From NCBI RefSeq assembly GCF_054482595.1, contig NZ_CM137008.1: a stretch of DNA of 64,000 nucleotides. The stretch is one strand, 5' to 3'. Numbering within the stretch: the first letter of the stretch is position 1; every line of letters begins with the position of its first letter. Below, piece by piece: positions 618 to 55,627 of the stretch. The translations under genes and the position numbers were made by a program. A model generated the notes under the pieces. It ran no database searches. It was given only the letters and a program-made list of their open reading frames with translations, and had not been told where the DNA came from.

Positions 618-1877
618 ATGCAACCTATCAAAATGGAGATTTTTATGACTAAAAAACCATGGGAAAGAAGACTTAAAGATTTATCGCACTTGCTCAAATG
701 CTGCATTGATACATATTTTGACCCTGAATTATTCCGCTTGAATTTGAATCAATTCCTCCAAACTGCAAGAACAGTAACATTTATTATTCAAAAAAACAAA
801 AACCAGATTATAGGATATGACATTTGGTATAACAATAATGTTATTGAAAAATGGAAAAATGATCCATTAATGGCTTGGGCTAAAAATTCTCGCAATACGA
901 TAGAAAAACAAGGCGATTTAGAAATGTATAGCGAGGCAAAGGCTACTCTTATTTCATCTTACATTGAAGAAAATGACATTGAGTTTATTACAAATGAAAG
1001 TATGTTAAACATTGGTATAAAAAAGTTAGTCAGACTTGCACAAAAGAAATTACCTTCATATTTAACTGAATCATCTATTATTAAATCAGAAAGACGATGG
1101 GTCGCTAATACGCTAAAAGATTACGAATTATTGCATGCCTTAGCTATAATCTATGGCAGAATGTATAACTGCTGTAACTCTCTTGGCATACAAATAAACA
1201 ATCCAATGGGTGACGATGTGATTTCGCCAACATCATTCGACTCTTTATTTGATGAAGCCAGGAGAATAACTTATTTAAAATTAAAAGATTACTCCATAAG
1301 CAAATTGTCATTTAGCATGATACAATATGATAATAAAATAATTCCTGAAGATATTAAAGAGCGTCTAAAACTGGTAGATAAGCCTAAAAATATCACTTCG
1401 ACAGAAGAGTTAGTTGACTATACAGCCAAGCTTGCAGAAACGACTTTTTTAAAGGACGGTTATCACATTCAAACATTAATTTTTTATGATAAACAATTCC
1501 ATCCAATTGATTTAATCAATACAACATTTGAAGATCAAGCAGATAAATATATTTTTTGGCGTTATGCAGCTGACAGAGCCAAAATAATAAATGCCTATGG
1601 CTTCATTTGGATATCAGAGCTATGGCTCAGAAAAGCAAGCATCAACTCCAATAAACCAATACATACAATGCCAATTATAGATGAAAGACTTCAGGTAATT
1701 GGAATTGATTCAAATAATAATCAAAAATGTATTTCATGGAAAATAGTTAGAGAAAACAAAGAAAAAAAACCGACTTTAGAAATATCAACAGCAGACTCAA
1801 AACATGACGGAAAACCATATTTCATGCGTTCAGTCTTAAAAGCAATTGGCGGTGATGTAAACACTATGAACAATTGA
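618..1877 (+). CDS. Hypothetical protein, 419 aa, AT-rich b-region cargo (moron); no recognisable domain
   Basis: Long uninterrupted ORF with ATG start; markedly AT-rich codon usage unlike neighbouring tail genes; convergent with tfa. Confidence 0.7.
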   Translation: MQPIKMEIFMTKKPWERRLKDLSHLLKCCIDTYFDPELFRLNLNQFLQTARTVTFIIQKNKNQIIGYDIWYNNNVIEKWKNDPLMAWAKNSRNTIEKQGDLEMYSEAKATLISSYIEENDIEFITNESMLNIGIKKLVRLAQKKLPSYLTESSIIKSERRWVANTLKDYELLHALAIIYGRMYNCCNSLGIQINNPMGDDVISPTSFDSLFDEARRITYLKLKDYSISKLSFSMIQYDNKIIPEDIKERLKLVDKPKNITSTEELVDYTAKLAETTFLKDGYHIQTLIFYDKQFHPIDLINTTFEDQADKYIFWRYAADRAKIINAYGFIWISELWLRKASINSNKPIHTMPIIDERLQVIGIDSNNNQKCISWKIVRENKEKKPTLEISTADSKHDGKPYFMRSVLKAIGGDVNTMNN

Positions 1878-2005: not shown

Positions 2006-2590
2006 TTATTCCATAACAGGGATTGCAGGCCACTCAATATCAGGTGCTACTGATGTATCAACTCGGTTCAGCAATACCCGATATGTCTTCCATGCCGCCA
2101 GTAACAATATCTCCTCCTCCGTCGCAATATCCAAATCTACCGCATCCTGAAGCGGCGCAATATGCTCACTGGCTACCCGCATGAGGCTGTTTTTTGTTTC
2201 TTCCGCCTCCCGTATACGAAACTGTTTTTCTGCTTCTGCATCTTTCACCCAGGTTGTGCCGTTCCACTTCTGATATTCCCCATCCGGCGACAACCAGGTG
2301 ACATTTTCCGGTAATGAGCCGAGTTCAGAAATAAATAACGCGTCCCCTGATGCCACGTCATAAACTGTTTTACCCCGATGGTCTTCAACAAGATGCCACG
2401 ATGCCTCATCACTGTTGAAAACAGCCACGAAGCCAGCCGGAATATCTGGCGGTGCAATATCGGTACTGTTTGCTGGCAGACCTGTATGAGGCGGAATGTA
2501 TGCGTCACCTTCACCAATAAATTCATTAGTTCCGGCCAGCAGATTATAAATTGTTATGGTCCGTGGTTGTTCACTCATTCTGAATGCCAT
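2006..2590 (-). CDS. tfa: Tail fibre assembly protein Tfa (194 aa)
   Basis: 194-aa ORF directly downstream of stf with 1-nt overlap; length and sequence match remembered lambda orf-194. Confidence 0.85.
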
Positions 2591-5500
2591 TATGCAAGCC
2601 TCACAATATAGTTAAATGCGATGTTTTTGACGGTGTTTTCCGCGTTACCAGCAGCGTTAACGGTGATGGTGTGTCCGTGTGAGCCAATCGCAACGGAGTG
2701 CGTATGAGCACCAATACCGACAGTATGCGCGTGTGCACCTGCACTTGCAGCAGTACCTGACACCGGGTGGGTATGCGCTCCGGCTGACGATGTGCCAGTA
2801 CTCGAGCCTGCACGAGACGCACCTTTGAGGGCTTTATCGCCCTGCTCGGTATTGCCAGATGGGTAACAGGCAACCGTGTGTGTATGTGCCCCTGCAGAAG
2901 CAGCCGTACCACTGACACTATGGGTGTGCGCTCCGGTGTTATTCGTGGATTTAGTGCCGTAATCAAACGACGATGTGGTTTTCGTCCCCAAATCCGTACT
3001 GGATGCACTGGCACTGTGGGTATGCGATTTAATGCCGTCCTGTTCCTGAGATAATACGGCACGACCACTGGCGGGCTTGCCCTTAATCGTCCAGCCACGC
3101 ATATCAGGGATCACGCCTGACGGATAAGCGGCTGCAAGTTTCGGGTAGGCAGATTTGTCAAAAGTCTGCCCCTGCATCAGGGCATAGCCAGACGGAACGG
3201 TATCTGATGGCCACGGGATTGGTGCACCGACTGGATAAAACTCTGCAGGAGGATGAGCCGAGGTGTAAAGCTGCGCCCACGGCGACCAGTTTGCGTCGGT
3301 CGTATCCCGTCGTGAACGAATAAATGCCGGAGCATGAGCACCGCTTGTACCACCCCAGCCGATGAGTAACTCACCTTCGCCAACGGCTGTCATCCCTTTC
3401 AGGTGAATGATATTTCCATACGCTGTTGGATATCCGTTGTTATACACCTCGTATAACTCAAGACCTGTTGCCCCCTGCGTATTGTCTGTCAGCGCGGTTA
3501 CCCGACCTTTTGAAGCCAGATTAACTGATGATACTGCTGTTCCACCTGACGGTAACGCCCCGATCTCTGATGCCGTTGGCTTATTTCTGGAGTTATAGTC
3601 CCTTCGCCAGCCAGGTGAATAATATGTTCCGTGATTAATATAGGTAAACTGGGCGTTAGTTGTTCCACCACCAGTGGAGGTGGTCGGTGTGGTAATGCGG
3701 ATCGTCATCGCTGACTTTATCCCCATTACTTCAATGACAGCTCCGGCGAGATGAATATTACCGCAGTCAGTATCAGTAATGATTTTATTATTGCCATAAG
3801 ACCAGGAACCCTTGCACATCCAGTATGGATGGTTAAATGCTCCCTGAGAATCCAGCCACTCGATAAACTGTGCAGTCGTCCAGTTTCCTGTTGTTGTGCT
3901 TACTGACCCACCGAAGGCACGGCAGGCACCAATATTTTTCGTAAAGGTATCTTTGCCAGGGATATCCGCACCGTTCTGATCTTTCTGCAGACGTTTCTCA
4001 GCATTGTCATTGGCTGCTTTTACTGCCTTTGGCGTTGCCGCCAGCGTTTCAGACGTGCTGTTGGTCGCGCTGCTTAACTGGATTATCCCTTTCTGTGCTG
4101 TCGTTGCATCCTGTGCGGTGTATTTCCCGTTAGCCAGGTCATACGCGGCCTTAACGGCTTTTGGCGTTGCCGCCTGTGACTCGGAAGTGCTGTTGGTCGC
4201 ACTGCTGAGCTGTACTATCCCCTTTTTCGTCGTGCTCGCATCCTCAAGCGCCACGGCGGATGCAATATCCTCTGCACGTTTTGCCGCTGTCTCAGCGCGC
4301 GTTGCTGCAGATTCCGCCGTACTTTTGCTCTGAGCTGCTGCCGTCGCACTACCAGCTGCCTCTGTCGCCTTCGTGGATGCCGTCGTGGCGCTACCCTTCG
4401 CTGCTGACGCCTGTCTGGTCGCCTCATCTTTTGAAGCAGACGCCGATGATGCCGATGACGCTGCCGAACTGGCTGACGATGCGGCAGCCGTTTTTGAGGA
4501 TTCTGCACGGGTTTCCGACGCTTTCGCGTTCGTTTCGGATGTCTTCGCTGCGGAAGCTGACCTCGCTGCTGCGCTGGCCTGTACAGCGGCTTCGCCAGCA
4601 TTCGTTGTGGCTGTTGAAGCAGACGATGCAGCACTTTCTGCCGACTTTCCGGCAGCGGTGGCACTGGCTGAGGCCTGCCCGGCACTTGTTGACGCGGCAC
4701 TGGCAGATGATGCAGCCGCTGTTTTTGAGCCTGCCGCAGCTGAGGCACTCTGTCCCGCTGCCGTTTCAGAAGACCTGGCGTTCGTCTCGGACGTCTTTGC
4801 CGCCTTCGCGGAATTTCCTGCCGCCGTTGCCGAGGAAGCGGCACTACTGGCGCTTGATGATGCGTTCGTTTCTGATGATTTCGCTGCCTCTTTTGAGGCC
4901 GCCGCATCCCGGGCTGAGGTGGCAGCTTCTGACGCCTTTGTGGTCGCGGCGGATGCAGAAGTGGCTGCAGATTTTTGTGACGCTGCCGCATTCGTTTCTG
5001 ACGTTTTCGCCGCACCGGCACTGGTAGCTGCCGCGCTTTTTGAGGACTCTGCAGCAGCAGCACTTTTCGATGCTTCACTGGCCTTTGTTGATGCCGTTCC
5101 TGCGCTGGAAGTCGCTGACTGAGCCGACGAAGCGGCCTGTCCGGCTGACGTGCTGGCTGCACGTGCTGAATCTGCAGCATCAGTCGCATGGGTTGCCGCC
5201 TCACGGGCAGATGTGCTGGCATCACTGGCTGACTTCTTCGCGGCTGCCGTGTTCTGTGCCACCACGGACGCGTTACGCGCCACCTCTTCCACCATCAGTT
5301 CAAAACGTCGCAATGCCTCCGGACGGGCATCATCCTCCGTCATCGCACCGAGAAAATCATTCAGCGTACCGGGTTGGGAATCTTCATACACGGTGATGGT
5401 CCCGGCATGTGACGGCGGGAATCCTTCCACCAACAGAATAACGCTGTACTGACCGTACTCAACGTCCATGCTGTAACGCCCGGCTTCATCCGGATTTTCT

Positions 5501-5625
5501 GAGGCCAGCGTGTTCACCACCACCGTGGTGCTGTTACGTTTTGCTTTCAGCTGGATTGTGCAGTTCTGAACCGGTTTTCCTGTGCCGTCTTTCAGTACAC
5601 CTGAAATCTTTACTGCCATATTCAC
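2590..5625 (-). CDS. stf: Side tail fibre protein Stf (1011 aa) with long Ala/Ser/Thr-rich repeat region and C-terminal His-x-His repeats
   Basis: Position after lom; low-complexity A/S/T repeat block and repeated GAHTHxV motifs near C-terminus typical of lambda/T4 gp37-type fibres. Confidence 0.85.
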
Positions 5626-5683
5626 CCCACAAAAAAGCCCGCCTGAACCGGCGGGCTGTCATAACACTGTGTTACCTGGCTAA

Positions 5684-6283
5684 TCAGAATTTATAACCGA
5701 CACCCACGATGAAACCGTCAGTGCGCCAGTCGCCACTGCCGGAACCTTCATAAGCGACATCAATGGCCACCGATTCGGTCGGGTTAAACTGCACGCCAGC
5801 TCCCCACGCCAGAGACGTGTTGCTGTGGCGACCGTCATCACTTCCGGTCAGCACATCGTGCGTTTTCCCCTTGCTGTCGGTCACCTGCAGATAATCCCCG
5901 GAGAAGGTCGAAACACGGCTGTAAGCCACCCCCGCCATCGCATACGCGCTGAACCATTCATTCACGCGCACAGACGGCCCCGCCATCACGCTGAACCAGC
6001 GGTTACGCACGGAATCTTCATGCCAGCGGGTATCGCTGTAATGCGTTTTTTGTTCATCTTCTGCGTCGGCATAACTGAAAGACGTAATCAGCCCCAGCGT
6101 GTCCGTAAATTCATAACGGTATTTCACGTTAATCCCGTTCAGATTATCGCTGCCGGGTGCGTTCGTACGGGCATGAAGATACCCTGCGCTCAGTGTGGAC
6201 TGATGTTCAGACGCCCATGCAGGCGCACCGGATACGGCCAGACAGATGGCTGCGGAAAAAATGGCTGCACAAACTTTACGCAT
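5684..6283 (-). CDS. lom: Outer membrane protein Lom (Ail/Lom family)
   Basis: 199-aa ORF with signal peptide, beta-barrel-like sequence, position between J and stf as in lambda. Confidence 0.85.
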   Translation of the reverse strand: MRKVCAAIFSAAICLAVSGAPAWASEHQSTLSAGYLHARTNAPGSDNLNGINVKYRYEFTDTLGLITSFSYADAEDEQKTHYSDTRWHEDSVRNRWFSVMAGPSVRVNEWFSAYAMAGVAYSRVSTFSGDYLQVTDSKGKTHDVLTGSDDGRHSNTSLAWGAGVQFNPTESVAIDVAYEGSGSGDWRTDGFIVGVGYKF

Positions 6284-6352: not shown

Positions 6353-9300
6353 TCAACTGATACTGATACCGGATGCGGCTTTTTTCGTTACCGAGACCAT
6401 TAAATCACTGATCCATGTTCTGGGCTCTCCACTGCCGCTCGACTGAACTTCAAATGTTAATATTACATCTCCGTCCCCCACTGGCATATCAATGATATTG
6501 CTGTACACGACTGTTGTCCTTTTCGAACCACTAGTGGATTTGTCATAGATTACATTGCCATTTTTGCGCACAATTAATCTGCAGGTATCGTAGATATTAG
6601 CGCCATCATTTCTACTAAAATATGGTGGCGCACCGTACATGATTGGTTGAATTATAATCTGCCTGTCAAAGGCATGATCGTCCTTAATATGAACGGTAAG
6701 TGAACCCTGTGGGTATTCTCCGGGGTGCGGAAATCGATGCCCTGTCGTTTTTACAAAATCACCACGCACCTGGTTAGCATCAAGCATCCCCTTAATAGTA
6801 CAGCTCTCATTAATCGTGACGTTGTTGAGCGTCCCGGCGTTCGCATTCACACTGCCACTGATATCCGCATTTTTAGCAGTCAGCTTTCCGTCAGGTGTCA
6901 GGGAGAATGCCGGAGGATTGCCACCACTGGTAATCGTGGGAGCAATAAGGAACTTGATCAGCGCCTCATTAATAAACGTCTGTCCGCCCTGTGTGACCAG
7001 TGCAGGAGTGGTGTTACCATTCGCCGGGTTAATAAATGCCACCCGGTCTGCAGCCAGCAGCACCTGACTCTGCATGCCGTCGGGGGTGTTCTCAATACCG
7101 GCACCGATACCCGCAATATAAAGGCGTCCGTCCTGCATCTGCTGCAGCTTCACTGCCCACATGCTGTTCAGGTTATTATTTGTATCAACCTGAACCTTCT
7201 GTATCTGCTGGATCGCTGCACTCTGGTCTTCCAGTTTCTTATTGACGGTCTGTGTTATTTCATTGCTGACATCCGTTATGGACGTCCTGATTTCAGTCAG
7301 GTCAGGCGCAAGCTGACCGTTATCAATCTGCGTCCACAGCTCCTGAGCCAGATGGGTTTTCCCTATCTCTCCTTTGAAAAAATCCAGATAGCCGGACGCA
7401 TCATCACTCGGCTGACCAACAGCCTCCACAAATGCCGATTTGCCAACGGTGTTCACACTGCGGATATAAAAATAATAATCATGGCCCGGTTTGATATTGA
7501 TACTGGCAGCTATCCAGTACAGCGCCGTGCCAAGATAGCGGGCTGTGGTTTCAACCTGCCTGATATCCGCAATCCGCTTTTCCGAGAACCAGAATTCAAA
7601 CTGTACCGTCGGGTCATAAACGGCAAGATGCGGCGTGGCGGTTATCTGAAAATAGCCCGGCGTCAGCTCAATCCGCGACGGCGCTGCCGGTGCGGCAATC
7701 CGGAACGATACCGATGCCGGATCGCCCTGCTGCCCCCAGGCATTTGCCGCCCGGACTGTCAGCCTGTAATTTCCCAGCGCCAGTTGCCTGAAGCGGTATG
7801 TGGTTTCCGTCGTCCGGGCCGTGCTGACCAGCCGTTCACTGCCATCATCCGCAGCCACGGTCAGGCGAAGCAGGAAGTTCACGCCCTTCACCACCTTCGG
7901 CGTGTCCCAGCGCGCCAGCACCTGATATTCCCCGCTGTCTGCGGTGACTTCGGCGGTCAGGTGCTGCACCGCTGGCGGCGTGACACCATTCACCGTGCCG
8001 CTCTGGTCACCGTCAAAGTGCGCCCCGTTATCCACGATGGCCTCTTTTGCCGGTACATGCTGCACGGCGGTGATGGCATACGTGCCGTCGTCGTTCTCAC
8101 GGATACTCACACAGCGGAACAGGCGCTGGCGCAGCGTCGGCAGCTTCAGCCCCCACACGCTGTACTCGGCAACGCCGTCAGGAACCCGGCTCACTTTCAC
8201 CTTCACGCCGTCGGTGACGGACTGGACCTCCACGCTGACCGGATTCCCCTGTCCGTCAACCAGGCTTATCAGCGTGGTGCCGGAAGATGGCAGCGTGATT
8301 TCACGGTCGAGCGTCAGTGTCCGGGTCTGGCTGTTCACCGCCAGCACACGCCCGCCGATGCTGATCCCCGCATAGTCATCATCGCAGATTTCAATGACAT
8401 CGCCCGGTACATGGCGAAGCCCTTCTGCGCCCACGCTGAAATCCACGGTCTGCGTTTCCAGCAGCTCCGTTTTAATCAGCCACAGCCCGGCTCGGTGTGC
8501 CTGCCCCCGGCTGGTACAGCCAAAGGCGTCCATCTTCGTGACATTACGACCGTAACGGAGAATGGCCTGCGTATCTTCAACAAGCTCTGTCGCCGTCTCC
8601 CAGCCGTTATTCGGGTCAATCCAGTTCACCTCAACGGCATTATGGCGGTCCTTCAGGGCGCTGAAGCTGTAGCGGAACGGCGCGCCATCATCCGGCATCA
8701 CCACATTACTGCGGTTATAGGTCCACACCTTATCCGACGGTCGGTCCTGCACGAACGTCAGCGTCTGCCCGTTCCATACCGGCATACAGCGCATCGCCGA
8801 GCAGAAATCACTGAGAACATCCCACGCCTTACGCTGTGTGGTCAGGTAGGCATTACAGGTGATGCGCGGCTCCGTGCCACCAAAGCCATCCGGCACCGAC
8901 TGGTCGCAATTCTGGCCGATGACATACAGCGCCCATTTGTCCACATCCGCCGCACCGAGACGCTTCCCCATGCCGTAGCGCGGATGGGTCAGCATATCCC
9001 ACAGACACCAGGCCATGTTATTGCTGTATGCTGGCTTAAACGTTCCGTCCCAGATACCGCTGTATTGTCGCGTCTGCGGGTTATAGTTCGACGGCACCTG
9101 CAGAATGCGCCCGCGAAGATGATAATTACGACTCACCTGCTGGCTGCCGAACTGCTCCGAGTCCACCTGTACGCCAACCAGTGCCGTGTTCGGGTAGCAC
9201 TGTTTCACATCGATGATTTCGGTGTATGACGACCAGAGCGTTTTGTTCTGCAACTGGTCTGTGGTGCTGTCCGGTGTCATCCTGCGCATCCGGATATTGA

Positions 9301-9829
9301 ACGGGCGCGGCGGCAGGTTATCCACCACTACCGATGCCAGATACTGCGAGGTGGTTTTGCCCTTAATGGTGATGTCTTTTTCCGTCACCCAGCCACCGTT
9401 ACGTTGTATCTGAACCAGCAGGCGGACTTCCGATGGATTCCGGTCCCCTTTTGAGGTGGTTTCCACCAGAGCCTGCACACCGAAGGTAAAACGCAGACGG
9501 TCGATGTTTGCCGACGTGATGGTCCGGATGATCGGCGTGTCGTATTTCACTTCCGTACCCAGCACCGTCTCGGAGCCGGAGGATTCAAACCCCTCAGGCG
9601 GTGTCTGCTCCTGCTCACCTGCCCGGAACACCACCGTGACGCCGGAGATGTTGGTATTCCCCTCACTGTCCAGCACTGGCGTACTGTTCAGCAGCACGCT
9701 TTTTAATCCATCCACCGGACCTTCAATCGGCCCTTCGCTGATGGCATCGATCACACTCAGCAACTGCGTGGACTTCAGGTTGTCCTTCGCTTCGCGCGGG
9801 GTATGCCCCTTACTGCTGCCTTTACCCAT
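6353..9829 (-). CDS. J: Tail tip host-specificity protein J
   Basis: 1158-aa ORF; N-terminus [26 protein letters not shown] matches remembered lambda J. Confidence 0.95.
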
Positions 9830-46074: not shown

Positions 46075-48819
46075 GTGAATTTAACCCTGACCCGAAGACT
46101 CTGGATGGGCTTTGCCCTGATGGCACTGTTAACCCTGACCAGTACCCTGGTGGGATGGTACAACCTGCGCTTTATCAGCCAGGTGGAAAAAGACAATACT
46201 CAGGCATTGATTCCTACCATGAATATGGCGCGCCAGTTGAGCGAAGCCAGCGCCTGGGAACTTTTCGCCGCGCAGAACCTGACCAGTGCCGATAACGAAA
46301 AGATGTGGCAGGCGCAGGGGCGAATGCTCACCGCACAAAGCCTGAAGATTAATGCGTTGCTGCAAGCGTTACGGGAACAAGGTTTTGATACCACCGCTAT
46401 TGAACAACAGGAGCAGGAGATCTCCCGTTCGTTACGTCAGCAAGGGGAACTGGTGGGGCAGCGTTTGCAACTGCGCCAGCAACAACAGCGACTCAGTCAG
46501 CAGATAGTCGCTGCCGCCGATGAGATCGCACGCCTGGCGCAAGGTCAGGCGAATAATGCGACAACTTCCGCTGGAGCGACCCAGGCCGGGATTTACGATT
46601 TGATCGAACAAGATCAGCGTCAGGCTGCTGAAAGTGCACTCGACCGGCTGATTGATATCGATCTTGAGTATGTTAACCAGATGAATGAACTGCGCCTTAG
46701 CGCCCTGCGGGTGCAGCAAATGGTGATGAATCTGGGGCTGGAACAGATCCAGAAAAATGCGCCAACGCTGGAAAGGCAGCTCAATAATGCGGTGAAAATT
46801 CTGCAACGTCGGCAAATACGCATTGAAGATCCGGGAGTTCGTGCGCAGGTCGCAACAACGTTAACTACCGTTAGCCAATATAGCGATCTGTTGGCGCTGT
46901 TCCAGCAGGACAGTGAAATCAGCAATCACCTGCAAACTCTCGCCCAAAATAATATCGCCCAGTTCGCGCAGTTTAGTAGCGAAGTCAGTCAGCTGGTCGA
47001 CACCATTGAGCTGCGCAATCAGCATGGACTGGCGCATCTGGAAAAAGCCAGTGCACGCGGGCAATACAGCCTGTTATTGCTGGGGATGGTTTCACTTTGC
47101 GCACTGATTCTGATCCTCTGGCGCGTGGTTTATCGCTCAGTCACGCGTCCACTTGCCGAACAAACGCAGGCGCTGCAACGGCTGCTGGACGGTGATATTG
47201 ACTCCCCTTTTCCGGAAACCGCTGGCGTACGGGAGCTGGATACCATCGGGCGGCTGATGGATGCGTTTCGCAGCAGTGTTCATGCACTGAATCGCCACCG
47301 CGAACAGCTGGCGGCGCAGGTCAAAGCACGTACAGCTGAATTGCAGGAACTGGTGATAGAACACCGACAGGCACGGGCGGAAGCAGAAAAAGCCAGCCAG
47401 GCAAAATCGGCGTTTCTGGCGGCGATGAGCCATGAGATCCGCACACCGCTGTACGGTATTCTCGGCACCGCACAGCTACTGGCAGATAACCCCACACTTA
47501 ACGCCCAGCGTGATGATTTGCGGGCAATTACTGACTCTGGTGAATCGTTGCTGACCATCCTCAACGATATTCTCGATTATTCGGCTATCGAAGCAGGTGG
47601 CAAGAATGTTTCGGTCAGCGATGAGCCCTTTGAACCGCGCCCGCTGCTGGAAAGTACCCTGCAATTAATGAGCGGACGGGTGAAAGGTCGCCCGATTCGC
47701 CTGGCAACGGCAATTGCCGATGATGTACCGAGCGCGTTAATGGGCGATCCGCGGCGTATTCGTCAGGTCATTACCAACCTGTTGAGCAACGCCCTGCGTT
47801 TTACTGACGAAGGGCAGATCGTTTTACGTAGCCGTACTGATGGTGAGCAATGGCTGGTCGAAGTGGAAGACAGCGGCTGCGGTATTGATCCCGCGAAACT
47901 GGCAGAAATCTTCCAGCCATTTATTCAGGTAAGTGGCAAACGCGGCGGCACCGGGCTGGGGCTGACTATCAGTAGCCGTCTGGCCCAGGCGATGGGCGGC
48001 GAACTGAGCGCCACCAGCACGCTGGAGGTTGGAAGCTGTTTTTGTTTACGCTTGCCGTTACGTGTTGCCACAGCACCCGCGCCAAAAACAGCCAATCAGG
48101 CGGTGCGTCTGGACGGTTTACGTTTGCTGTTAATTGAAGATAACCCGCTAACCCAGCGAATTACCGTTGAGATGCTGAACACCAGTGGTGCGCAGGTTGT
48201 TGCTATTGGCAATGCCGCGCAGGCTTTAGAGACACTGCAAAATAGCGAACCGTTTGCTGCCGCACTGGTGGATTTTGATCTGCCGGATATCGACGGCATT
48301 ACCCTTGCCCGGCAACTGGCACAGCAATATCCGTCGCTGGTTTTGATTGGCTTTAGCGCTCATGTCATTGACGAAACGCTGCGCCAGCGTACCAGTTCAC
48401 TATTTCGCGGGATTATCCCTAAACCGGTGCCGCGTGAAGTGCTCGGTCAGTTACTGGCGCACTATCTCCACCTGCAAGTCAATAACGATCTACCACTTGA
48501 TGTATCGCAACTCAATGAAGATGCTCAATTAATGGGGACGGAGAAGATCCACGAATGGCTGGCATTATTTAAACAACATGCCCTGCCGCTTCTCGATGAA
48601 ATCGACATTGCCCGCGCCAGCCAGGACAGCGAGAAAATAAAGCGTGCCGCGCATCAGCTAAAAAGCAGTTGCTCGAGTCTGGGAATGCGTAGCGCCAGTC
48701 AGCTATGCGCACAACTGGAGCAGCAGCCATTATCTGCCCCCCTTCCACACGAAGAAATTACACGCAGTGTTGCCGCTCTGGAAGCATGGTTGAATAAGAA
48801 AGACCTGAACGCGATTTGA
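46075..48819 (+). CDS. torS: TMAO sensor histidine kinase TorS
   Basis: 914-aa [24 protein letters not shown]; HisKA/HATPase/receiver/HPt architecture. Confidence 0.95.
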
Positions 48820-52788: not shown

Positions 52789-53531
52789 ATAAATTACAGT
52801 CGTATTTCATTGCCAGCGTACTTTACGTAATGACACCCCATGCCTTTGCGCAAGGAACGGTGACTATTTATCTGCCTGGCGAACAACAGACACTTTCCGT
52901 TGGCCCCGTGGAGAATGTTGCCCAGTTGGTGACACAACCGCAACTGCGCGATCGCCTCTGGTGGCCTGGTGCCCTGCTGACCGACTCCGCGGTGAAAGCT
53001 AAAGCGCTTAAAGACTACCAACATGTCATGGCACAGCTTGCTTCCTGGGAAGCAGAAGCTGACGACGATGTGGCGGCAACGATTAAATCCGTGCGCCAGC
53101 AGTTACTCAATCTCAATATTACTGGTCGCTTACCGGTCAAACTGGACCCTGATTTTGTACGAGTGGATGAGAACAGCAATCCCCCGCTGGTCGGGAACTA
53201 TACGCTCTATACCGTACAGCGCCCGGTGACTATTACTCTTCTGGGTGCGGTTTCTGGGGCTGGGCAATTGCCCTGGCAGGCAGGCCGTAGCGTTACCGAT
53301 TATCTGCAAGATCACCCCCGTCTTGCAGGCGCGGACAAGAATAACGTTATCGTGATTACGCCTGAGGGTGAGACTGTCGTCGCCCCTGTTGCCCTGTGGA
53401 ATAAAAGACATGTGGAACCACCGCCTGGCAGCCAGCTTTGGTTAGGCTTTTCTGCGCATGTACTGCCCGAAAAATATGCTGATTTAAATGACCAGATTGT
53501 GTCTGTTTTAACGCAACGTGTTCCTGACTGA
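52785..53531 (+). CDS. gfcC: GfcC (YmcB)
   Basis: 248-aa ORF with signal peptide; operon order. Confidence 0.9.
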
Positions 53532-55627
53532 TGAAGAAGAATTCTTATCTTTTAAGCTGCCTGGCCATTGCCGTCTCCAGTGCCTGTCATGCTGAAGTAT
53601 TAACCTACCCGGATCCGCTGGGTTCGTCGCAATCGGACTTTGGCGGCACAGGATTGTTGCAGATGCCAAATGCGCGCATCGCACCGGAAGGTGAATTCAG
53701 CGTCAACTACCGGGATAACGATCAATACCGTTTCTACTCCACCTCCGTGGCGCTGTTCCCATGGCTGGAAGGCACCATTCGTTATACGGATGTGCGCACA
53801 CGTAAATATAGCCAGTGGGAAGATTTCAGCGGCGATCAGTCATACAAAGACAAATCATTCGATTTTAAACTTCGCCTGTGGGAAGAAGGTTACTGGCTAC
53901 CGCAAGTGGCGTTTGGTAAACGTGATATTGCTGGTACGGGTCTGTTTGACGGTGAGTATCTGGTGGCCAGCAAGCAAGCGGGGCCATTTGATTTCACCCT
54001 CGGGATGGCATGGGGCTACGCCGGTAATGCAGGCAATATTACCAACCCGTTTTGCCGGGTGAGCGATAAATATTGTCATCGCGCAGAGTCTCACGATGCG
54101 GGCGATATCAGCTTTAGCGATATCTTTCGTGGCCCAGCCTCCATCTTTGGCGGCATTGAGTATCAAACGCCGTGGAATCCCCTGCGTCTGAAACTCGAAT
54201 ACGACGGCAACAATTACCAGAATGATTTCGCTGGCAAACTGCCTCAGGCAAGCCATTTCAACGTCGGTGCAGTTTATCGCGCTGCCAGCTGGGCAGACCT
54301 CAACCTGAGTTATGAACGCGGTAACACGTTGATGTTTGGTTTCACTTTACGGACCAATTTCAACGATCTGCGCCCTGCCCTGCGCGATACGCCAAAACCG
54401 GCATATCAACCTGCGCCTGAATCTGAAGGATTGCAGTACACCACGGTAGCAAACCAACTTACCGCCCTGAAGTATAACGCGGGCTTTGACGCGCCAGAAA
54501 TTCAGCTACGCGATAAGACGCTGTATATGTCTGGTCAGCAATACAAATACCGTGACTCTCGTGAAGCGGTCGATCGTGCCAACCGGATTCTGGTGAATAA
54601 CCTGCCGCAAGGCGTTGAGAAGATTAGCGTGACGCAAAAGCGCGAGCATATGGCGATGGTGACTACCGAAACCGACGTAGCCAGCCTGCGCAAACAGCTG
54701 GCAGGTACAGCGCCTGGTCAATCAGAGCCACTGCAACAACAACGTGTTGAAGCTGAAGATCTTTCTGCCTTTGGTCGGGGCTACCGTATTCGTGAAGATC
54801 GCTTTAGCTACTCTTTCAACCCAACACTTTCACAGTCGCTGGGCGGCCCGGAAGATTTCTATATGTTCCAGCTGGGGCTGATGTCCAGCGCCCGCTACTG
54901 GTTTACCGACCACCTGCTGCTTGATGGCGGTATTTTCACCAATATTTACAACAACTACGACAAGTTTAAGTCTTCACTGTTGCCCGCGGACTCTACCCTG
55001 CCCCGCGTGCGCACGCATATCCGTGATTACGTTCGCAATGACGTTTATCTCAACAACTTGCAGGCGAATTACTTTGCCGACTTAGGCAATGGTTTCTATG
55101 GCCAGGTGTATGGCGGTTATCTGGAAACGATGTACGCCGGTGTCGGTTCCGAGCTGCTTTATCGCCCGCTAGATGCCAGCTGGGCGCTGGGTGTGGACGT
55201 TAACTACGTGAAGCAGCGTGACTGGGACAACATGATGCGCTTCACCGATTATTCCACGCCAACTGGTTTCGTGACGGCTTACTGGAACCCGCCGACGCTC
55301 AATGGCGTACTGATGAAACTTAGCGTTGGGCAATATCTGGCAAAAGATAAAGGGGCAACGATCGACGTCGCCAAACGCTTTGACAGCGGCGTGGCGGTAG
55401 GGGTATGGGCGGCAATCAGTAACGTATCTAAAGATGACTACGGCGAAGGCGGCTTTAGTAAAGGTTTTTATATCTCGATTCCGTTCGACTTGATGACCAT
55501 TGGACCTAACCGCAACCGCGCGGTGGTTTCGTGGACACCATTGACGCGTGATGGTGGACAAATGCTGTCACGCAAATACCAGCTCTATCCAATGACGGCA
55601 GAGCGAGAAGTACCGGTTGGACAATAA
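53531..55627 (+). CDS. gfcD: Outer membrane lipoprotein GfcD (YmcA)
   Basis: 698-aa ORF; operon order. Confidence 0.9.

Follow-up and report, generated by a model that had tools for sequence, protein, structure and literature searches.

Introduction

The side tail fibre (Stf) of Ur-lambda is a 774-aa protein (UniProt P03764) with a partial structure (PDB 9e7m/9mgh; PMC12617516). Its N-terminal StfN collar fixes the fibre to the tail, and its proximal coiled coil comprises residues 102-393 (PMC12617516). The tip of T4 gp37 (PDB 2XGF; domains D10/D11) carries seven HxH motifs that serve as iron sites; among its residues, H929 and H931 ligate iron, and the receptor is bound by 933-949 (PMC6957217). 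Specificity is determined by T4 residues 932-965 (PMC9659904; PMC6957217). Magaziner and Salmond (2022) described a T4/lambda-based RBP family in which conserved flanks (T4 812-931 and 966-1026) enclose a variable domain, about 30-70 aa long, that sets specificity; a gp38/Tfa-like chaperone is encoded adjacently (PMC9659904). Further related structures exist for the tail fibre S/S' of phage Mu (PDB 5yvq, 8ju3). The overall architecture and the iron-binding needle with its HxH motifs are established, as are the hypervariable head that sets specificity and the exchange of modules among lambda, T4, Mu and P2 fibre genes. Here, we compared with these systems the stf gene of a lambda-like prophage in a 64,000-nt window of contig NZ_CM137008.1 (RefSeq assembly GCF_054482595.1), in which every feature given below with window coordinates lies on the minus strand.

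Results

The stf gene lies downstream of J, between lom and tfa, in the lambdoid late operon, so the canonical order J-lom-stf-tfa is common to this locus and Ur-lambda. The prophage seems complete from int to tfa. An open reading frame of 1011 aa at 2590..5625 begins with GTG, and an ATG two codons downstream (5617-5619) gives a protein of 1009 aa starting MAVKISG. We preferred the ATG as the likely start, because it agrees with lambda Stf and with the RefSeq annotation WP_175617248.1, whose start is identical; the coding sequence is therefore 2590..5619, with its stop codon at 2590-2592. It is 100% identical to NZ_CP130669.1 68814-71843. A terminator-like hairpin 3' of lom (5636..5657) ends 16 nt upstream of the stf ATG, and a GGGG Shine-Dalgarno-like run sits between the two. 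Promoter and terminator scans returned counts in line with those of shuffled sequence, and this hairpin was their sole clear feature. At the other end, the stf stop codon is overlapped by the start of tfa (2006..2590), which encodes a tail fibre assembly chaperone of 194 aa (PF02413, E = 5e-43) with 91% identity to lambda Tfa.

Pfam searches matched Stf to PF08400, PF03406, PF07484 and PF03335, and relatives of solved structure span aa 1-94 (9e7m), 492-695 (5yvq, 8ju3) and 794-1009 (2xgf). The N-terminal StfN collar domain (aa 1-94; 5338..5619) matched all 134 of 134 profile positions of PF08400 (E = 9e-72) and residues 1-94 of the "Tail fiber protein" in PDB 9e7m (E = 3.8e-52). This match and the position between lom and tfa bear out the sequence-only reading of the gene as a side tail fibre, which had also given the length of lambda Stf correctly, at about 774 aa. 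Identity to Ur-lambda Stf is 81% over aa 1-352, a region in which the collar and an Ala/Ser heptad shaft are alike.

The same reading had described some 330 residues of degenerate Ala/Ser/Thr repeats. The block is real and far from chance, and it is more ordered than that description. The predicted proximal shaft (aa 113-455; 4255..5283) is 343 aa long, exactly 49 uninterrupted heptads of the form A-x-x-S-A-x-x in a single register, and Ala opens 47 of 48 heptads. The composition of residues 121-460 is 38% Ala, 24% Ser and 12% Thr. In a Fourier analysis, Ala gave a power of 43 for period 3.5 and of 20 for period 7, whereas 2000 shuffles yielded about 9 at most. Within the block, protein self-identity was 42% when the offset was a multiple of 7 and 20% otherwise. 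A heuristic heptad counter began the block at aa 127 instead of aa 113 and returned 47 heptads; the anchor-to-anchor distance is the more reliable measure. In an AF2 single-chain model of the shaft, aa 99-320 and 337-460 were helical, the highest pLDDT was 92, and there was a low-confidence break at aa 313-343. This break may stem from the shallow alignment, as lambda-type sequences are without that stretch, or from folding as a monomer; it may also mark a true hinge of the shaft. By analogy with the Ur-lambda structure, the shaft would be trimeric. Ur-lambda has 34 heptads, so the present shaft is longer by exactly 105 aa, or 15 heptads; its estimated length is 51 nm, about 15.5 nm beyond that of lambda.

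The shaft is followed by two 44-aa Phage_fiber_2 repeats (aa 456-545; 3985..4254; PF03406, E = 5e-37), with a motif that starts KKGI(V/I) and runs on for 20 residues; Ur-lambda shares this junction but has one repeat. At the DNA level the region holds a repeat of 107 nt (D2) with 75% identity and a spacing of 132 nt. One copy is missing in four relatives, and a chromosomal paralogue in the same strain has three. The region is a junction or hinge and a recombination boundary. Beyond it lies an internal module homologous to the phage Mu tail fibre S/S' (aa 546-700; 3520..3984), which matched residues 178-334 of PDB 8ju3 (domain E = 4e-68). In the alignments, query aa 492-568 matched Mu S 99-175, and aa 539-695 matched 178-334 of the 8ju3 chimera with high identity. 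This module is larger than the part of lambda Stf that it replaces (aa 398-529). It is internal, with about 300 residues beyond it, and unlike in Mu it is accompanied by neither an invertible segment nor an invertase. The next distal fibre module (aa 701-793; 3241..3519) is without a solved relative. In the chromosomal paralogue, both aa 546-700 and aa 701-793 are replaced, so that its middle differs while its N-terminus and tip are 100% identical to those of the query.

The last 216 residues (aa 794-1009; 2593..3240) form a putative receptor-binding tip of the T4 gp37 type, with collar and needle. They aligned with residues 28-242 of the 2XGF chain (E = 6e-88) at 68.4% identity to T4 gp37, and the collar domain (PF07484, E = 7e-12) is common to both. 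Identity to the Ur-lambda tip, also of the gp37 HxH type, is 69%. The seven HxH motifs (aa 866, 898, 912, 949, 963, 972 and 981) aligned one-to-one with the seven of T4, so the suggested likeness to T4 gp37 proved to be direct homology. Of 121 sequences (the query and 120 relatives), 117 retain all seven. Ur-lambda has eight. By homology, the tip would be an iron-bound, intertwined trimer. An AF2 monomer of the tip (aa 780-1009; 25-sequence alignment) was unusable (pLDDT 49.4, pTM 0.21), and the fold was therefore assigned from the sequence match to 2XGF only. Here the tip is carried by a siphovirus side fibre and in T4 by a myovirus long fibre; in both, the chaperone gene lies directly downstream.

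Between the third and fourth HxH motifs lies a hypervariable head of 35 aa, the putative receptor-specificity segment (aa 914-948; 2776..2880). Its mean identity to relatives was 29%, compared with 95% in its flanks and 94-99% elsewhere, and at least six alleles occur. The spacing from the third to the fourth HxH is 37 aa, the same as in T4, whereas the longer head of Ur-lambda gives 48 and the common alleles 51-52. T4 H929/H931 and the segment after them aligned with query H912/H914 and the segment that follows. Of the eight T4 head residues essential for plaque formation, two or three are kept (G938 and G943, with V in place of I933), too few for a receptor to be read from the query head, and receptor specificity probably differs from the OmpC/LPS specificity of T4 gp37. 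The allele is rare: of 5426 complete E. coli genomes, 11 carry it, as does no isolated phage in the sequenced collection searched (best tip match, 87% identity). The head is the distinctive part of this stf, and its pattern is already published for the protein family; set beside that family (PMC9659904), the query follows the same pattern with nothing fundamentally different, as one more allele.

We also compared fibre length among relatives. Other E. coli prophage Stf proteins ("prophage tail fiber N-terminal domain-containing protein") are 90-94% identical over their full length and number thousands of sequences, one cluster of relatives alone having 4246 members. At least 80% of stf is carried by 636 of 5426 complete E. 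coli genomes (~12%). The view that this fibre is unusually long did not hold: among the closest 120 protein clusters most relatives are 1021-1024 aa long, and family representatives reach 1096, 1181 and 1200 aa. Its short tip head leaves the query about 14 aa below the length of typical relatives. Relatives differ from it mainly in the head allele and in occasional deletions of heptad or Phage_fiber_2 units. Within the block we found clean deletions of 7, 14, 14, 21 and 28 aa, and elsewhere a 44-aa deletion of one Phage_fiber_2 repeat. In the wider family, shaft lengths differ from that of the query by 15, 16, 29, 31 or 32 whole heptads. Measured from anchor to anchor, the query shaft spans 341 aa, those of the lambda-type classes 236 or 229 aa, and those of short forms about 117-138 aa. 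Among family representatives, the 341-aa shaft is joined to at least four different C-termini. The block is thus variable among relatives, mostly by whole heptads. In 36 of 122 sequences (the query, 120 relatives and Ur-lambda), however, the difference in shaft length is not a multiple of 7, mostly ±3 aa at an SSA run near aa 387, so the heptad register is not strictly preserved.

The overlapping open reading frames noticed on both strands of the block are present (336, 255 and 249 aa). They are accounted for by the fact that three of the five alternative frames contain only 0-2 stop codons over the 1029-nt block. None matched a Pfam family above the cut-off, and their sole match was low-complexity and sub-threshold (21.7 bits versus a cut-off of 27), so we rejected them as spurious. 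PADLOC and Pfam searches of neighbouring AT-rich open reading frames gave no meaningful match. An invertible tail-fibre segment of the Mu G, P1 C or e14 P type was likewise rejected, since the locus showed no qualifying inverted repeats and no invertase; no recombinase adjoins tfa, in contrast to the ATCC 8739 locus with pinQ.

Discussion

These results indicate that stf is very probably an intact mosaic gene for an ordinary side tail fibre of the lambda type, carried by a complete lambda-like prophage. Its product would be expressed and would be expected to trimerise. By homology to the Ur-lambda structure, the N-terminal 94 residues would make up the collar through which the fibre is attached to the tail tip, and aa 113-455 would form one long three-stranded alpha-helical coiled coil with an Ala/Ser core. 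Two Phage_fiber_2 repeats and the Mu S'-like module would come next, and then a gp37-type beta needle whose folding would be aided by the adjoining Tfa chaperone. Each HxH motif, with the three chains together, would coordinate one iron ion, and the head, at the distal end, would make contact with the host receptor and accelerate reversible adsorption. Recombination at conserved junctions would exchange whole modules of such a mosaic gene, and degenerate heptad motifs would occasionally recombine in register, shifting shaft length in heptad units.

The block might instead be an intrinsically disordered low-complexity spacer. Its extreme Ala/Ser/Thr composition, the absence of large hydrophobic core residues and the low-confidence segment of the AF2 monomer fit that idea, but a perfect single register over 343 aa does not, nor does an AF2 helix with pLDDT of about 90 over some 200 residues. 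The homologous region of Ur-lambda Stf was assigned to a rigid trimeric coiled coil by cryo-EM/ET and AF3 (PMC12617516), and family length classes are quantised in heptads; we therefore regard disorder as extremely improbable. A structured block could still act as a slippage-prone contingency locus, in which frequent length change switches host range or adsorption. Two features favour this: repeated motifs, for example AAK(S/T)SETNA, flank each deletion in relatives, and 17 relatives carry 3-aa indels at the SSA run. Against it, Tandem Repeats Finder detected no tandem array in the block, only a 13-nt match in two copies; at offsets of 21 nt the DNA is only 44% identical to itself, and exact repeats in the whole stf gene reach 15 nt at most. 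Moreover, 74 of the 122 sequences have exactly the same shaft length, and the 341-aa shaft is kept in 50%-identity clusters whose tips differ. A slippage switch is thus very unlikely, and the variation looks like occasional recombination. The earlier proposal that slipped recombination on the repeats alters fibre length survives in a weak form, as heptad-unit deletions, and fails as slippage on an array.

Many prophage stf genes are defective; that of lambda PaPa is frameshifted, and those of K-12 are truncated. The present gene could be a similar inactive relic, but its 3030-nt reading frame is intact, with a lambda-type start, a Shine-Dalgarno-like run and an intact overlapping tfa, and the prophage around it appears complete, which makes a relic highly improbable. 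Under the preferred reading of an intact mosaic fibre, a bolder combined proposal is that the length classes are adaptive, with the extra reach of about 15 nm matched to the depth of the host O-antigen or capsule or to the geometry between side-fibre and J-fibre receptors, and that OmpC is not the receptor of the rare T4-length head. We consider this combination possible but rather unlikely.

As a discovery the locus carries small weight, and its practical value is modest. The gain lies in clean module boundaries for a widespread fibre class and in recognising a "low-complexity" block as a phased 49-heptad rod whose length varies mostly in heptad quanta. The natural module junctions of stf fall at the same places as R393 and S528, the fusion points of engineered lambda STF, and the rare head allele could add to the natural cassettes that set the specificity of engineered lambda-based delivery particles.

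Identification of the stf gene

The ORF listing of the window confirmed a GTG-initiated ORF of 1011 aa on the minus strand (2590–5625), the size given by the sequence-only reading. An ATG two codons 3' of the GTG (window 5619) begins the N-terminus of lambda Stf, follows a GGGG run and is also the RefSeq start, so Stf is best taken as 1009 aa (2590–5619), the numbering used here. The stf stop is overlapped by tfa (2006–2590, minus strand), and on the other side lie a terminator-like hairpin closing lom (5636–5657), lom (5684–6283, minus strand) and J (6353–9829, minus strand). The window is 100% identical to plasmid pSM107_MCR of E. coli SM107, in which stf sits within a complete lambda-like prophage. 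The gene is intact and encodes an ordinary mosaic side tail fibre of the lambda type, from a common E. coli prophage class, with nothing new in kind.

Heptad organization of the shaft

Residues 121–460 comprise 38% Ala, 24% Ser and 12% Thr. Arranged seven residues to a row, aa 113–455 gave exactly 49 heptads (A-x-x-S-A-x-x) that keep one register throughout; across 48 heptads, position 1 was Ala in 47, position 4 Ser in 37 and position 5 Ala in 34. For Ala, Fourier power was 43 for a period of 3.5 and 20 for a period of 7, whereas 2000 shuffles gave no more than about 9, and protein self-identity within the block was 42% at multiple-of-7 offsets versus 20% at others. Self-comparison of the block revealed no dominant higher-order repeat. 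The phasing and the offset self-identity indicate that TSETNA and SASSAAS, two motifs listed earlier as degenerate repeats, represent local variation within a single long heptad repeat. The Ala/Ser/Thr repeats are therefore real, but the description as low-complexity is replaced by a single-register 49-heptad repeat, and a disordered tract is very unlikely given the continuous periodicity.

The AF2 single-chain model (36-sequence alignment) showed a helix over aa 99–320 (pLDDT about 80–92) and a second helical stretch at aa 337–460. A cryo-EM/cryo-ET study of Ur-lambda attributed the homologous region (lambda residues 102–393) to a proximal coiled coil of three chains, which a flexible linker connects to the collar domain at the N-terminus, residues 1–91 (PMC12617516). 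At about 0.148 nm per residue, we estimate a rod of ~51 nm for the 343 shaft residues.

The repeats were also said to generate spurious ORFs on both strands, and they do: ORFs of 336 aa (minus strand) and of 255 and 249 aa (plus strand) overlap stf, and three of the five alternative frames contain 0–2 stops across 1029 nt, because GCN/TCN/ACN-rich coding leaves few stops there. No Pfam family scored above its cut-off in the overlapping ORFs.

The gp37-type tip and its variable head

The last 216 residues matched 2XGF, a crystal structure of the receptor-binding tip of T4 gp37 (E 6e-88), with 68.4% identity to T4 gp37 by tblastn. Seven HxH motifs (aa 866, 898, 912, 949, 963, 972 and 981) all aligned to the seven of T4 gp37, bearing out the gp37-type assignment; lambda Stf has eight. 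H912 and H914 are the alignment counterparts of T4 H929 and H931, which are iron ligands in a needle lined by seven irons (PMC6957217). The motifs are conserved among relatives: in a set of 121 sequences (the query plus the 120 protein clusters nearest to it), 117 carried exactly seven, and each histidine column was essentially invariant. A Collar domain (PF07484, Pfam) within the tip and the adjacent Tfa chaperone, 91% identical to lambda Tfa, complete the module.

The actually distinctive part of Stf is the head, 35 residues between HxH 3 and HxH 4 (aa 914–948; window 2776–2880). It averaged 29% identity to relatives, compared to 94–99% for the rest of the protein, with at least six discrete alleles among them. 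The query allele occurred in only 11 of 5426 genomes and was absent from the isolated phages of the collection searched, where the best tip match was 87%. HxH 3 and HxH 4 are spaced 37 aa apart, as in T4, compared to 48 in lambda and 51–52 in most relatives. The head corresponds to T4 gp37 residues 932–965, the receptor-specificity domain, whose receptor-contacting residues were found by alanine scanning (PMC6957217, PMC9659904). Of eight essential T4 residues, only G938 and G943 are kept (I933 is V), so the receptor cannot be inferred from the head. A variable specificity insert with conserved flanks and an adjacent chaperone is the published arrangement of the T4/lambda RBP family (PMC9659904).

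Mosaicism and fibre length

The remaining modules matched the lambda Stf N-terminal fragment of the tail-tip structure (aa 1–94; 9e7m, E 3.8e-52), two 44-aa Phage_fiber_2 repeats (aa 464–545) and the Mu S/S' fibre (aa 539–695; 8ju3, domain E 4e-68). The SM107 chromosome carries a second Stf of 972 aa (L006, the chromosomal locus, 2373–5291; NZ_CP130667.1 2083276–2086194), belonging to a second lambdoid prophage. Both genes are 100% identical over nt 1–300 and the 3' 480 nt, with 100% identical tips; the chromosomal Stf shares the 49 heptads but has three Phage_fiber_2 repeats and an unrelated middle module, and the Lom proteins share one accession. These identical ends and the shared Lom, with a differing middle, suggest recent exchange between the co-resident prophages. 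The exchanged part is bounded by the Phage_fiber_2 region and by the point where the collar domain begins, and these limits coincide with R393 and S528, the fusion points of engineered lambda STF chimeras (PMC11338833).

The fibre had been called unusually long, which is wrong: the nearest 120 protein clusters (90–94% identical; a single one of them holding 4246 sequences) are mostly 1021–1024 aa, the query being slightly shorter because its head is short, and representatives with the Stf N-terminal domain reach 1096, 1181 and 1200 aa. At least 80% of the gene was present in 636 of 5426 complete E. coli genomes. Compared to Ur-lambda Stf (774 aa), the query has exactly 15 more heptads (anchor-to-anchor 341 versus 236 aa), one more Phage_fiber_2 repeat (+44 aa) and about 120 aa more in the middle module, with a tip 30 aa shorter.

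Slipped recombination had been proposed to alter fibre length. Among close relatives, clean block deletions of 7, 14, 14, 21 and 28 aa were each flanked in the query by a repeated motif (AAKSSETNA and AAKTSETNA for the 28-aa deletion), and a 44-aa deletion removed one Phage_fiber_2 repeat. Eleven indel types were 5 aa or longer, and five of these were multiples of seven (P = 0.013; chance rate 1/7). In the wider family (50%-identity clusters), anchor-to-anchor classes were 341, 236, 229, 138, 133, 124, 117 and 88 aa. Whole-heptad differences from the query (15, 16, 29, 31 and 32) were seen in five of the other seven classes, and the identical 341-aa shaft was paired with at least four different C-termini. 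Four results, however, speak against fast slippage: Tandem Repeats Finder detected no array in the block, heptads were 44% identical at the DNA level, exact repeats in the gene reached at most 15 nt, and 74 of 122 sequences shared the same shaft length. Another 36 differed by a non-multiple of seven, mostly ±3 aa at an SSA run near aa 387, indicating that register discontinuities are tolerated. The repeats thus appear to change fibre length only through slow, heptad-quantised recombination.

Neither an invertible segment nor an invertase was found at the stf locus. In E. coli ATCC 8739 (L002:7703–8293), the invertase pinQ comes after a 97%-identical stf-tfa pair, whereas the window has no invertase 3' of tfa; the fibre class thus occurs both next to a Pin-type recombinase and without one.

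Flanking genes and plasmid context

Just past tfa lies an AT-rich (about 30% GC) ORF of 419 aa (window 618–1877, plus strand), at the position of ea47 in lambda; lambda record KT232076 has a hypothetical ORF of equal size at the same place. It matched phrog_19262, of uncharacterised function (410/410 profile positions, E 9e-292); Pfam and PADLOC gave no match for it. Between it and the prophage end, just outside window position 1, are two hypothetical genes without Pfam matches (L001, the plasmid locus, 17416–18315 and 18797–19399; record 74223–76206); the marginal ZorB/MotB-like PADLOC match of one (E 0.002) is probably noise.

The thermonuclease gene of the plasmid is split by the complete prophage (about 48.5 kb); the two gene halves are annotated at record 27998–28225 (nuc fragment, window 46208–46435) and 76754–77056 of NZ_CP130669.1 (window x = record 74433−x). 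Other features of pSM107_MCR are a PilV shufflon, type IV pilus genes and mcr-1.1 (window 52985–54610); a lambdoid prophage that looks functional, carried by a colistin-resistance plasmid, may merit separate study.
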